NCBI GenBank assembly: GCA_016906335.1
Contig: JADEYG010000003.1
Span: 1,116,001 to 1,180,000 of the forward strand
DNA length: 64,000 nt
Direction of reading: 5' to 3'
Source of the DNA: Novakomyces olei
Lineage: Eukaryota
Shown: piece after piece, positions 19,215-64,000 of the stretch
Layout: each line of letters starts with the position of its first letter
How positions within the stretch are numbered: position 1 is the first letter of the stretch
Made by a program: the position numbers and the translations under genes
Notes under the pieces: generated by a model
What the model was told of the DNA's origin: nothing
The model's database searches: none
Seen by the model: the letters and a program-made list of their open reading frames with translations, nothing else

Positions 19215-23669
<4,455 letters not shown>

Positions 23670-24161
23670 CGTGCACGTACGCACCTGCGCACAGCACTGT
23701 GCTGCGCGTTTACACGCGCGTTATTCGCCCTCTTCAATTTTCAAAAAGAAAAGGCGCCAACTTTCACAGCGTGACTATTTCATTAGTGAACTCGATACAT
23801 TTATGCTTGTGTATGATATTACCCATACACTTCATTATTGACCGTGCCACATTAGCGGCCGAGCGTGCTAGATAGTCAAAAAATCCTCAAGGCAAGCCGT
23901 CTGATCCCTTAAAGACTTTATCTGCTACGGCAAATAGGATCAGTGAATAATTGGCGTCTGTTTATAATCAATCATTCGTGCGCCGTGCACGCACATAATT
24001 CTCGACTCGAAATGGGTACAAAGTTGTCCACAGATCTAATCCAGAGATAAGCTTAATCGTATATCAGTATAACGCTCGACATTACTTTAATATTGAAATA
24101 TAATAAATATAATTTTATTACATAAAATAATGAATTTAATTAATCTTCAGCTAGCAAAAAT

Positions 24162-24258: not shown

Positions 24259-24686
24259 ATGAAGTTCTCCCGCGACGTCTCGTCTTCGCGCCGCAAGCAG
24301 CGCAAGGCGCACTTCTCCGCACCGTCTTCGGTACGCCGTCAATTGATGTCGTCTGGTCTGTCGAAGGAATTGCGCGAGAAGCACGGCGTATGTGGTGCCA
24401 TATGGACTGAACGAAATACTAACTAGCGCAACAGGTACGGTCACTCCCCGTGCGTCAAAATGACGAAGTAGTTGTCGTGCGCGGTTCACACAAAGGTCGC
24501 GAGGGCAAAATCACAGCCGTCTACCGCAAGAAATTTGTTATTCACATTGAACGTCTTACACGGGAAAAGGTTAATGGCGCCTCTGTGCCCATCCCTATCG
24601 ATGCGTCAAAGGTTAAAATCATCTCGCTTAAGCTCGACAAAGATCGCAAGGATCTCATCAGCCGCAAGGGTGGCAAGGCTGAATAA
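24259..24686 (+). CDS. RPL26: 60S ribosomal protein L26 (uL24)
   Basis: [27 protein letters not shown]...[17 protein letters not shown]. 47-nt intron at 24388-24434. Confidence 0.97.
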
Positions 24687-59119: not shown

Positions 59120-61042
59120 ATGACAGGCGCCAAATTCCCCGTAGATTTGCAGCAGTTTAAGCGACTCCAGCTTGACGCGAAGCAGCCAGAGCTGACGAGC
59201 GAACAAAGGGCAGATTTGTTACACAATATTGGCGTGTTTAGAGACGCGATTGTAGCCTTTACAGCTACTGGAGCAGCCCGAGGCGTCTCTGGTCACACGG
59301 GCGGCCCCTTTGACACTGCGCCTGAAGTCTGTGTCTTGCTCGGCCTTATCAATGGGGACCCCAACGGCTATGTCGACACTCTGTTTGACGAGGCCGGTCA
59401 CCGAGTGGCCACGCAGTACCTTTTGGCCGCTCTGCACGGCGACATTGCCCCCGACCATCTGCTCAGCTACAGAGCAGCCGGGTCGAAACTGCCGGGCCAC
59501 CCGGAGCTCGGACTGACGCCCGGCATAAAGTTCTCCTCCGGCCGCCTCGGCCACCTGTGGGGTATGGTCAACGGCATCGCTATGGCCAACAAGGGCAAAT
59601 CCGTATTCCTGCTCGGGTCGGACGGGTCTCAGCAAGAAGGCGATGACGCAGAGGCAGCTCGTGTCGCGGTCGCCAACAACCTGAACGTCAAGCTCTTCAT
59701 CGACAACAATGACGTCACTATCGCAGGGCACCCTTCGCAGTACCTCAAGGGGTATGACGTAGGCCGAACCTTGGACGGCCATGGGCTTAAAGTCGTGCGG
59801 GCAGAGGGCGAAAACATTGACGCGCTTTACGCTGCCATTTGCGCAGTAGTGAGCCACGACGGTCCCGCCGCCGTCGTTGTCAACCGCAAAATGGCGCCTG
59901 GAATCGTAGAAATTGAAGGCCAAACCCACGCGCACGATGTTATTCCCGTGGCAATAGCCAAAAACTACCTCACCAAGCGTGGGTACAGTGCAGAGTCGCT
60001 GGCGTTTTACGACCAAATCAAACCGGGATCCAACCCTCACAGCTACGAGGGCTCTACTGTAGAAAAGGCGGCAAACCGGTCTATATTCGGAGAGGCTGTA
60101 AACGCGGTTCTGGACCAGTTGAGCAAGGGTGAGGCACACGACAGGGTTATGGTCATTGATTCTGACCTCGCCGGGTCGACTGGCTTGAAAGCCATTCAAA
60201 CAAAACACCCTGAAGTGTTTGTTGCCTCTGGCGTCATGGAACGAGGCAATTTCTCTGCCGCTGCCGGGTTTGGCTTTGGCAGCAAGGGCGAACGGCAGGG
60301 CGTGTTTTCCACTTTTTCTGCGTTCTTGGAAATGTGTATCTCTGAGATTACAATGGCCCGTTTGAACAATTGCACTGTCCTCTCCCACTTTTCCCATAGC
60401 GGAGTCGACGAGATGGCCGATAACACGTGCCATTTCGGACTGAACCATTTCTTTGCCGATAATGGGCTTATGGACGCAGAAGTAACACGGCTCTATTTTC
60501 CCGTGGACGGTGAGCAAATGAAGGCAGTAGTAAACAAGGTCTTTTGGGATCAGGGCTTGCGCTTCATCTTTTCTACTCGCTCAAAGCTGCCCTACATCCT
60601 CAAGGAAGGCAGCAGCGATGAAAAGATGTACGGGCCTGGCTACGAGTTTACTCCTGGCAAGGAAGAGTTTATCCGCCGTGGCAGTGCTGGCTACGTTGTT
60701 TCCTACGGCGATATGGTCTACCGCTCTCTCGATGCTGTAGAACGGTTGCGCCGTGAGGGCTTGGACGTTGGTCTTGTTAATAAGCCAACACTTAACGTTG
60801 TTGATGAGGACGCTATCAAGGTTTATGGGTCTGCGCCTTTTGTTTTGGTCGTTGAATCAATCGCACAAAAGACCGGACTCGGTTCACGCTTGGGTACACA
60901 CCTGCTAGAACGGAGTTTGACGCCCAAGTTTAATGCTATTGGCGCTGTTAAAGAGGGGTCCGGTGGACTGTATGAGCAGATCAATGCTCAGGGACTCGGC
61001 CCGGACGATATTTTGCAAGCAATCAAGAAAATTGCAAAGTGA
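59120..61042 (+). CDS. Atypical transketolase-like ThDP-dependent enzyme, 640 aa
   Basis: GHTGG, LPGHPE, SSGRLGH, ThDP motif GSDGSQQEG...DNN, DSDLAGST, GVMERG, STFSAF, and a transketolase C-terminal domain. Intronless. Confidence 0.88.
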   Translation: MTGAKFPVDLQQFKRLQLDAKQPELTSEQRADLLHNIGVFRDAIVAFTATGAARGVSGHTGGPFDTAPEVCVLLGLINGDPNGYVDTLFDEAGHRVATQYLLAALHGDIAPDHLLSYRAAGSKLPGHPELGLTPGIKFSSGRLGHLWGMVNGIAMANKGKSVFLLGSDGSQQEGDDAEAARVAVANNLNVKLFIDNNDVTIAGHPSQYLKGYDVGRTLDGHGLKVVRAEGENIDALYAAICAVVSHDGPAAVVVNRKMAPGIVEIEGQTHAHDVIPVAIAKNYLTKRGYSAESLAFYDQIKPGSNPHSYEGSTVEKAANRSIFGEAVNAVLDQLSKGEAHDRVMVIDSDLAGSTGLKAIQTKHPEVFVASGVMERGNFSAAAGFGFGSKGERQGVFSTFSAFLEMCISEITMARLNNCTVLSHFSHSGVDEMADNTCHFGLNHFFADNGLMDAEVTRLYFPVDGEQMKAVVNKVFWDQGLRFIFSTRSKLPYILKEGSSDEKMYGPGYEFTPGKEEFIRRGSAGYVVSYGDMVYRSLDAVERLRREGLDVGLVNKPTLNVVDEDAIKVYGSAPFVLVVESIAQKTGLGSRLGTHLLERSLTPKFNAIGAVKEGSGGLYEQINAQGLGPDDILQAIKKIAK

Positions 61043-61801: not shown

Positions 61802-63479
61802 TCATAAAAAGTACTCTGATCGTCTAATGCGCGCGGGTATCTGCCGAAGCTCATCAGGCAGTAAATAAAAGTCAGTATTTCAAGCAAAAACAAAACAAAA
61901 CAAAATGAAATGAAATAAAATAAAATAAAATAAAAACTATTATTTCATTTTTAAAAGGGAACTTATCTGCTGTGAAAATGTTAAACTCCGGGTCAAGGTC
62001 GTCACGCACTTTCATGATGCTAGCAACGTTACCGCATCGATAACAATAATTGGGTGCACTCCACACTGTAACCAAACTTTCATCCTGGAAATGATATTTA
62101 AATCCTTCTTGTACAAGTTGATGAGCACGCGCAATCAATTGCAGGCCGTTTAAATGATTGAACTATAATTAGCACGCTAAAATAAAAGATAGCGAGATTA
62201 AACGAGGAAAAGGAGGCCGAAATAAACGGAAAAAGGGACTAGATTTCTTTGGAAATATCGGGCGTCGAGCTTAATATATATAACAGGAAAGACGAGCTAC
62301 GGCGTCAATACTTCATGAAGCCGAGCCACGCGCTCTGAAACAAAAGACGCAAAGACCTCTGGAGCCTATGACTAGCGCCGTGTACAATAAGAGTACTTAT
62401 TCCCATCATAATGAACAAGAATCATTATGAAAAGCAAAACATAACATGACTTTAGAAACTATCTTACCTCTGAGGTCACTTTGGCGCCAAAAAGCCATCC
62501 AGCACCGCGGGGGGATACAGCCCAAGCATCGACCTCTGTAAAATTTAGATTGCAATCGAACAGTTAAAATGTCCCTACCTTCAGGATCTGACCACATTAA
62601 ATCACAAAAAGCTCCTTCATGAGGAATCTCCTGAGCTCGTGCAAGTATTCGAATTTGATCGAGTGTTCGCACTTCAGGGCTCAGCCCACCGTGCACACAC
62701 AAAATCTTGCCGTCTATGACAGCGGCTAATGTTAGAAAGTCAAATACTTGGCAGCAGTATTTCCAGACATTAGCATTCCCATATTTCTGCTGGCATTCGT
62801 CGTAGAAACCGTAGACTTGTGTTATCTGCCGTGACTCGTGATTTCCACGTAACAGTGTAACTTTATCCGGGTACCTTTGGGTAAGGACAAGAATTTGGGA
62901 AAAAGAAGAGGTAGCCTCAAGAAGCACAGAGACAAAAGCGTAGCAGACGGAATGGCTGATTAAATGCAAAGTTCAAGACAGCTTGAGAATGCAAACCGAC
63001 AGAAATATCGAGCCACCGATGAGACAGAGGAGGCAGAATCATCAAATAGAAAAAGACTTGTTAAATAACGATGAATTACTTTGCTTTTAGGCACATCAAA
63101 AGCGTAAAAGTCTCGAGACTAAAGTATCCCCGGTCCACAAAATCACCCTATTTTGTAAGCAGCCGTAAAAACAGCCTTTATTTCTCACCATGAATATATA
63201 ATTTGTATCGGGAACTTCGCCGCCAACTCGAAATAGCTCAAGCAGATCGTAAAACTGGCCGTGTATATCACCAGCAACTGAAACGGGGGACGAAACAGGT
63301 TGGATATTGGACTCCTCCTGTACAAATTAAAGTGTAAGTCGATCAAATTGGCGAGGTTGTACTGTTCTCCTCACCATCAAAATATCCTTGACCATCTCAC
63401 ACAAACGCTTCAGATCAGACTCGAGGAGGTGATTGCACCCGCGCACAATGTCGAGCCACTCGTCGGGTCCTCCACCCAT
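61802..63479 (-). CDS. SIT4: Ser/Thr protein phosphatase PP6 catalytic subunit Sit4/Ppe1
   Basis: [52 protein letters not shown] and terminal YFL. Introns at 63318-63374, 63148-63188, 62875-63079, 62536-62578, 62163-62467, and an AT-AC intron at 61861-61966. Confidence 0.95.
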
Positions 63480-64000
63480 GCTTGTGACGCTGACGCTGTA
63501 CGCGAACTAACGAGCTTTTGCTTTGTTTTGCTTTGTTCTATTTAATTTAATTTAATTTCTTTCCTCCCGCTCGATCGCAAATGCCGCGTAAGTTGCAAAT
63601 GATATATTAGTCAGTAATAGCAGACGAGTAATAAGCGTGAATAGAAATAAAAGGTATAAGAATAGTGTCTGACTCTGGTTTTAAAAAAATCAAAACAATA
63701 ATTCAAACAATAATTCAAGCAGTAATAAACAATAATTAAAACAATAATAGAAAAATAAATAAACAATAATAAAAAATAGATAAAACAATGGTAATATACA
63801 GCTGAATAATGCGTGTAGTATAGCAATTTTATTTGTTTAAATGTCTCTGTGCGCGGTTTGGATTATACTGAATTTTTAACTCATTCAGAGACTAAATACT
63901 AAATAATTTATAGAGGCAATCTTTCTCTGCACCTTCGTGACCTAATGCGTTAATATAGCAAGGCTTTGTCCAGGCGAGGCAAGTCGTTAGTTTAGCGGCG

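Follow-up and report, generated by a model that had tools for sequence, protein, structure and literature searches.

The last intron of a PP6/SIT4/ppe1-type protein phosphatase gene begins with AT and ends with AC, and we consider it very likely that this is a genuine U2-type AT-AC intron (an 'AT-AC type II' intron), running from 61966 to 61861 and removed by the major spliceosome so that 61967 is joined to 61860. The gene lies near one end of the stretch of DNA that we analysed, which is 64,000 nucleotides long and is called the window below. An earlier note, made from the letters, had placed an AT-AC intron at 61861-61966, and we find these coordinates to be exact, the termini being read directly on the minus strand. 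The gene and the parts of it that matter most for the argument are the following, with a slash marking the border between exon and intron.

61802..63479, minus strand: PP6/SIT4/ppe1-type protein phosphatase gene, ATG to stop, 7 exons, 306 codons
63479-63375, 63317-63189, 63147-63080 and 62874-62579, minus strand: exons 1-4 of the PP6 gene, as joined
62535-62468, 62162-61967 and 61860-61802, minus strand: exons 5-7 of the PP6 gene, as joined
61802..61860, minus strand: exon 7 of PP6, 59 nt, G+C 49%
61861..61966, minus strand: intron 6 of PP6, AT..AC, 106 nt, phase 1, 17% G+C
61961..61969, minus strand: 5' splice site cag/ATAAGT, 8/9 against CAG/GTAAGT, mismatch at +1 only
61871..61877, minus strand: putative branch site TACTGAC, 6/7 against TACTAAC, branch A at 61872, 11 nt from the last intron base
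61861..61863, minus strand: 3' splice site TAC/, no AG between the branch and AC, next AG ending at 61850
61887..61935, within intron 6: pentanucleotide tandem repeat, (AAAAT)n on the plus strand and ATTTT/GTTTT on the gene strand, 9.8 copies

Joined together, the seven exons form a frame of 921 nt, with 306 codons plus TGA and no internal stop. Introns 1-5 are all GT..AG and measure 57, 41, 205, 43 and 305 nt. Membership of the PP6/SIT4/ppe1 family follows from the metallophosphatase domain, exon 4 matching the Pfam family Metallophos (PF00149) at 1.6e-20, and from the fact that the closest identity is to named PP6 orthologues. Identity of the spliced model amounts to 82% with a cluster that includes a Protomyces lactucae-debilis protein, 81% with Ppe1 of S. 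japonicus and 80.6% with the P. jirovecii protein. A protein search with exon 6 returned thousands of PP2A-family proteins, the best full-length fungal matches being named SIT4, ppe1 or PP6, and no product 100% identical to the spliced model is found among the best 120 protein matches. The conserved C-terminal tail ending in Tyr-Phe-Leu is obtained only with the AT..AC junction, as exon 7 contributes the last two bases of a split Val codon, 18 codons up to Tyr-Phe-Leu and the TGA (61804-61802). At the other end of the gene, AT-rich tandem repeats at 63693-63789 and 63516-63558, with periods of 11-34 and 5, are found a short way upstream of the start codon, in the promoter and leader region.

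On the minus strand the donor reads ...TTCACAGCAG/ATAAGTTCCC..., with the first intron base, A, at 61966, and the acceptor reads ...AAATACTGACTTTTATTTAC/TGCCTGATGAG..., with the last intron base, C, at 61861. The terminal letters on the gene strand are A at 61966, T at 61965, A at 61862 and C at 61861. The intron splits a Val codon as G/TG, which the join of exon 6 to exon 7 completes. Its base composition also sets it apart, with a G+C content of 0.17 against 0.42-0.60 in the exons and a sharp change at both borders.

The remaining signals of intron 6 are those of a U2-type intron, namely a /ATAAGT donor and a U2-type branch at the usual distance, with no U12 branch motif. Both are the strongest in the PP6 gene and stand above those of the five GT-AG introns, whose donors agree with CAG/GTAAGT at 5, 5, 6, 6 and 7 of nine positions and whose branch candidates reach 5/7 against TACTAAC. 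The U12 donor /ATATCCTT is matched at 4/8 positions. For the U12 branch TCCTTAAC, which lies 10-15 nt from the 3' end in that class, the best match is 5/8 and ends 18 nt from the 3' end; four of the PP6 GT-AG introns match it equally well and intron 3 does better, with 7/8. The reading of the donor and branch as U2-type rather than U12 in the earlier note is thereby supported (8/9 and 6/7 against 4/8 and 5/8). Elsewhere in the window, the candidate GT-AG introns of a strict screen and the intron of a ribosomal protein gene, both described below, have a CTAAC, CTGAC or CTAAT motif at 5-16 nt before their 3' ends, so a branch-to-end distance of 11 nt is ordinary for this genome and is no U12 trait. 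A strong /ATAAGT consensus is described for metazoan U2-type AT-AC introns (PMC5029451), and Sheth et al. picked their U2-type AT-AC introns by a 5' site otherwise fitting the U2 matrix (PMC1557818).

The strict screen, in which open reading frames were joined across the whole window, yielded 10 candidates with GT-AG ends and, apart from intron 6, a single one with AT-AC ends, at 24400-24438. The latter is a false positive that falls within an ordinary GT-AG intron. The gene concerned codes for a ribosomal protein like L26; it spans 24260-24686 on the plus strand and has one canonical intron of 47 nt at 24388-24434 (GGC/GTATGT...TACTAAC...AACAG/GTA). A looser version of the screen proved non-specific, since control dinucleotide pairs gave as many candidates as GT-AG. 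Elsewhere in the window we observed an open frame of 1,501 codons (19215-23720, minus strand), which contains an extended and perfect stretch of Ala-Gln dipeptides as well as PVSK and TLANTKP units that recur, and has a zinc-finger-like C-terminus. A search of the 64-kb window with Rfam at the gathering threshold found no RNA family.

The choice of the junction was examined with a profile of the protein tail. All pairs of donors at 62010-61926 and acceptors at 61900-61816 (85 x 85 = 7,225 pairs) were translated and scored with an HMM made from 115 complete orthologue tails, which were drawn from 251 proteins, 120 of these being unrelated transketolase-like proteins. The AT..AC pair 61967/61860 ranks first of the 7,225 with 91.9 bits, and the ranks after it are taken by slides of the same junction by 1 to 3 bases, with non-splice dinucleotides. 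Just 21 of the pairs are GT/GC..AG, and the best of these scores 72.9 bits with nine codons of intron read-through. The match of the AT..AC junction to the tail profile is more than chance. The motif F-x-A-V-P-[DEN] is found in 129 of 191 complete orthologue tails and the looser F-x-[AS]-V in 163 of 191. Counted from the YCYRCGN motif, the window tail has 46 residues; the commonest length in the family is 47, found in 131 tails, while 13 have 46. That the joined exons restore the F(S/T)AVP motif and the terminal YFL, as had been proposed, is upheld by the 306-codon frame and the best profile score.

The same test allows us to weigh splicing at canonical sites. Canonical pairs near intron 6 either insert read-through or remove conserved residues, and on paper there are three in-frame alternatives. 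In one, a GC donor (61971/GCAGAT) would be joined to the AG ending at 61850; this pair, 61971/61849, deletes five residues and scores 70.9 bits. In another, the GT within ATAAGT would serve as the donor, with the exon ending at 61963, and would be joined to the AG ending at 61824; the product of this pair, 61963/61823, has Asp-Lys directly ahead of the final six residues and reaches 67.7 bits. Either would leave a shorter tail that still ends in Tyr-Phe-Leu in the right frame, and three Pneumocystis records (P0243, P0241 and P0245) are annotated in the style of the second. Their donors, GCAGAT and GTTCCC, are however very poor, and their scores lie about 21-24 bits under that of the AT..AC junction. 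They would also put into the intron 5 to 13 codons that match the family pattern V-P-D/E...R-x-I/V-P in frame, and the G+C content steps from 0.17 to 0.49 at 61861/61860 and not downstream, as they would need. We therefore regard canonical splicing of this intron as very unlikely.

A different question is whether the intron is removed at all. Without splicing, translation enters intron 6 for 31 codons before it meets a stop (ORF 61872..62162), and this open stretch would suit an intron that is mostly retained, or a gene in decay, with a protein truncated after exon 6 and extended by read-through. But the other six exons are intact, with 81-82% identity to orthologues, exon 7 has been kept in frame with the family tail, and the intron with the best splice signals of the gene would be the one left in place. 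We give retention or decay just as little chance as canonical splicing, and return to the AT..AC junction.

The relatives of this gene offer a further view of the same intron position. The Pneumocystis ppe1 cluster (P. jirovecii) consists of eight records from six species with lengths of 263-300 aa (P0046, P0241-P0247). In seven of the eight (two of jirovecii, carinii, murina, wakefieldiae and two of canis) Asp-Lys directly follows the homologous Ala. A G/GT donor would give Gly at this place, and Asp-Lys therefore points to a G/ATAAR donor that has been read through; the intron starts of the relatives are deduced from the read-through translations alone, and Lys is compatible with A or G at +5. 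The opposite terminus in these relatives would presumably be AC. Four of the Asp-Lys records end 2-8 residues further on (jirovecii CCJ31087, carinii, murina and wakefieldiae). The other three (jirovecii RU7 and the two of canis) pass from Asp-Lys to ...(Q/R)(I/V)P...EYF(I/V), the last 13 residues, a bypass of the kind that the window's GT..AG alternative with 67.7 bits would make. The eighth record ('macacae') breaks off at an intron further upstream and is uninformative on intron 6. Gene finders do stumble at this intron, as had been expected: of the eight Pneumocystis models, four end within its counterpart and three skip it. As for other introns of the gene, the position of window intron 2, and perhaps that of intron 3 too, seems to be common to Pneumocystis, judging by read-through in P0247 and a deletion in P0241.

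A protein search with the read-through ORF of the window listed 120 matches, 112 of them new. Among the matches listed, Ala-Asp-Lys is also found in two metagenome ORFs, P0282 and P0349. The first continues as Ala-Asp-Lys-Phe-Pro-Phe, which is the window's own read-through, and the second as Ala-Asp-Lys-Ser-Leu-Phe. Both are about 74% identical to window exon 6, and where P0282 aligns with P. carinii the identity is likewise 74%, so these ORFs are taken to represent a third lineage. P0349 is non-homologous upstream of FNH and P0282 begins two residues before FNH; the position of the preceding intron may also be common to the window and these two ORFs. Among the tails listed from a metagenome scan with 80 loci, none contains the Ala-Asp-Lys read-through. 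A scan of prokaryote genome contigs gave 10 eukaryote-like loci in prokaryote MAGs, at 53-70% identity, and the nine that were translated added nothing.

In other fungi this intron position has a GT donor. Such a donor is indicated by Ala-Gly-(Lys/Thr/Glu) in all four ORFs of the P0351 cluster, and P0351 resembles a protein of the basidiomycete Pisolithus (71%). In the DNA of L072 (560-760), one of the 80 loci of the metagenome scan, we see a GT-AG intron, GCG G/GTGCGC...TGCAG/TT CCC, in the same position and phase as intron 6 (with the acceptor letters, G/GTGCGC...GCTGACGGCAGCATGCAG/TT). This locus has a second intron before the final Tyr-Phe-Leu codons. There is no intron at the site in Protomyces-like ORFs from contigs of 43 kb and 119 kb, nor in most Pezizomycotina and yeast sequences. 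The presence of GT-AG at the same position and phase in other fungi points to a switch from GT-AG to AT-AC within the major class. The suggestion that the intron is the relic of a converted minor intron finds no support, the introns seen at this site elsewhere being GT-AG of the major type in the L072 DNA and having a GT donor in the four P0351-cluster ORFs.

These comparisons also bear on the possibility that an ordinary GT-AG intron was wrongly sequenced or assembled at its two ends. The pentanucleotide repeat inside the intron might invite errors, though such repeats favour indels over substitutions, and two substitutions, independent of one another, would have had to strike precisely the pair of bases that compensate each other. 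Seven independent Pneumocystis records and two metagenome ORFs moreover show the A(+1) signature as well, which makes such an error hardly credible.

For the phylogenetic placement of the window we used a PP6 tree of 29 rows, made up of the window and 28 named or representative sequences chosen from a larger set, none of them from Basidiomycota or early-diverging fungi. In this tree a clade of Pezizomycotina and Saccharomycotina is supported at 100/98 and excludes the window, which takes its place beside S. japonicus, the Protomyces group and Pneumocystis in a grade whose order is not resolved. From this tree and from the neighbouring gene, the organism is probably an ascomycete outside Pezizomycotina and Saccharomycotina. 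The neighbour is transketolase-like and free of introns (59123-61039, plus strand); it converges on the PP6 gene, about 760 nt separating the two stop codons, and is 79-82% identical to proteins of Penicillium, Aspergillus and other ascomycetes. This identity to Pezizomycotina is unusually high given the placement of PP6 outside that group.

Within this placement the odd A(+1) donor appears to be common to several lineages that, like the window, lie outside the Pezizomycotina and Saccharomycotina clade. The simplest history would be that the site once held a GT-AG intron of the major type, of old standing, which many lineages lost and which became AT-AC in one or more of the lineages outside these two groups. 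The placement also argues for dependence of intron 6 on the major spliceosome (U1/U2/U4/U6), because PMC10639083 describes no convincing evidence for minor introns in Ascomycota or Basidiomycota; from its position in the tree, the organism would be expected to lack U11, U12, U4atac and U6atac. A U12-type (minor-spliceosome) AT-AC intron with degenerate signals, to which the AT-AC termini and the short distance of 11 nt from branch to 3' end might seem to point, is the least probable reading of all, as it agrees with ATATCCTT at 4/8 positions, its best match to TCCTTAAC (5/8) is no better than in the PP6 GT-AG introns, the 11-nt spacing is ordinary for GT-AG introns of this genome, and the closest relatives are ascomycetes, in which the same source reports no convincing minor introns.

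How the major spliceosome would process a U2-type AT-AC intron of this kind can be sketched from earlier work. According to Wu and Krainer 1997 (cited in 10.1101/226894), it removes AT-AC introns given strong other signals. Parker and Siliciano 1993 (cited in PMC5029451) are the source for the finding that the second step fails when an intron beginning with A has an AG acceptor, and that it is rescued when the final base is C. Intron 6 fits this established type II pattern, having the strongest donor and branch of its gene, a T-rich body, an AC that is the first past the branch and no competing AG. The 5' splice site would pair with U1 and U6 like a perfect GT site except at +1, and the TACTGAC branch site would pair with U2. 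In the second step, A at the first and C at the last intron base would stand in for the non-Watson-Crick contact between two Gs, and the A(+1) would direct the choice of the first AC past the branch over the AG 11 nt downstream. The join of 61967 to 61860 would then complete the Val codon and add the conserved PP6 C-terminal tail ending in Tyr-Phe-Leu. We infer that splicing takes place in vivo at these AT..AC termini. Its most likely origin is a GT-AG intron in this position that underwent two substitutions, each compensating for the other.

Introns of this kind are known but scarce, as the earlier note had stated. The survey in PMC1557818 gives 15 U2-type AT-AC introns in human, 6 in mouse, 3 in fly, and none in worm or Arabidopsis, that is 24 of 610,067 introns in five species. 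Examples of animal type II introns are those of SCN4A and SCN5A (Wu and Krainer 1997, cited in 10.1101/226894 and PMC1557818), which like the window intron have AT/AC termini with an otherwise perfect U2-type /ATAAGT and no U12 motifs. Their borders are described as conserved from human to pufferfish. The window intron differs from them in being fungal, in lying in a phosphatase gene, in its length of only 106 nt and in its yeast-like branch site. For SCN4A and SCN5A, dependence on the major snRNAs was demonstrated by experiment, whereas that of the window intron is proposed from sequence comparison. With U12-type AT-AC introns the window intron shares the terminal dinucleotides only, their donor and branch motifs being absent.

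Among fungi, a close counterpart is the AT-AC intron of lea1 (SPBC1861.08c) in S. pombe, which 10.1101/226894 describes as confirmed by RT-PCR, removed by the major spliceosome and earlier mis-annotated. Like intron 6, it occurs naturally, interrupts coding sequence and belongs to an ascomycete outside Pezizomycotina and Saccharomycotina, and S. pombe has no minor spliceosome (10.1101/226894). The two introns lie in different genes, and the case for lea1, which we compare through its published description, draws on RT-PCR, RNA-seq and spliceosome profiling, whereas that for the window is comparative only. In S. cerevisiae, nested AT-AC junctions in RPL30 also represent AT-AC splicing in a yeast without a minor spliceosome (PMC5029451). 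These events concern 1-2% of transcripts, take place inside another intron and have donors unlike /ATAAGT (PMC5029451); the window intron, in contrast, has the /ATAAGT donor and is the sole route to the conserved protein tail. AT-AC introns have further been proposed in the literature for fungal xylanase genes. Our literature search found nothing linking AT-AC introns with Pneumocystis or with ppe1, although supplementary tables may list further fungal AT-AC introns, and for non-canonical splice sites in Pneumocystis it found unrelated papers only. The window intron would therefore belong to a known kind, and what seems new is its apparent conservation across lineages together with what looks like a systematic error in public Pneumocystis models.

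The idea that this is a rate-limiting intron controlling a regulatory YFL finds no support in our analysis. Human PP6 holoenzymes are reported to be unaffected by the loss of C-terminal methylation (PMC8630191), which weakens the argument for a regulatory YFL, although the tail itself is strongly conserved. A bolder proposal would be that the AT-AC state of the last ppe1/SIT4 intron is ancient and kept by selection, being common to the window organism, all sequenced Pneumocystis and at least one uncultured soil lineage, that the amount of full-length PP6 is set by a second splicing step which is slow or depends on conditions, and that further AT-AC introns are hidden by the annotations of these fungi. 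We think that this proposal is unlikely to hold as a whole.

If the preferred reading of a U2-type AT-AC intron is true, it has several consequences. S. pombe lea1 is the only fungal AT-AC case in a coding region with experimental support that we found, and the window would provide the second. The host gene is an essential signalling phosphatase, and the odd first base is apparently kept across distant lineages. Of the eight public ppe1 models of Pneumocystis, seven seem to be in error at the 3' end, probably because AT-AC was disallowed, and a correct annotation of PP6 would require that it be allowed. Finally, the intron would be a natural system in which to study how the first and last intron bases are matched in the second catalytic step.
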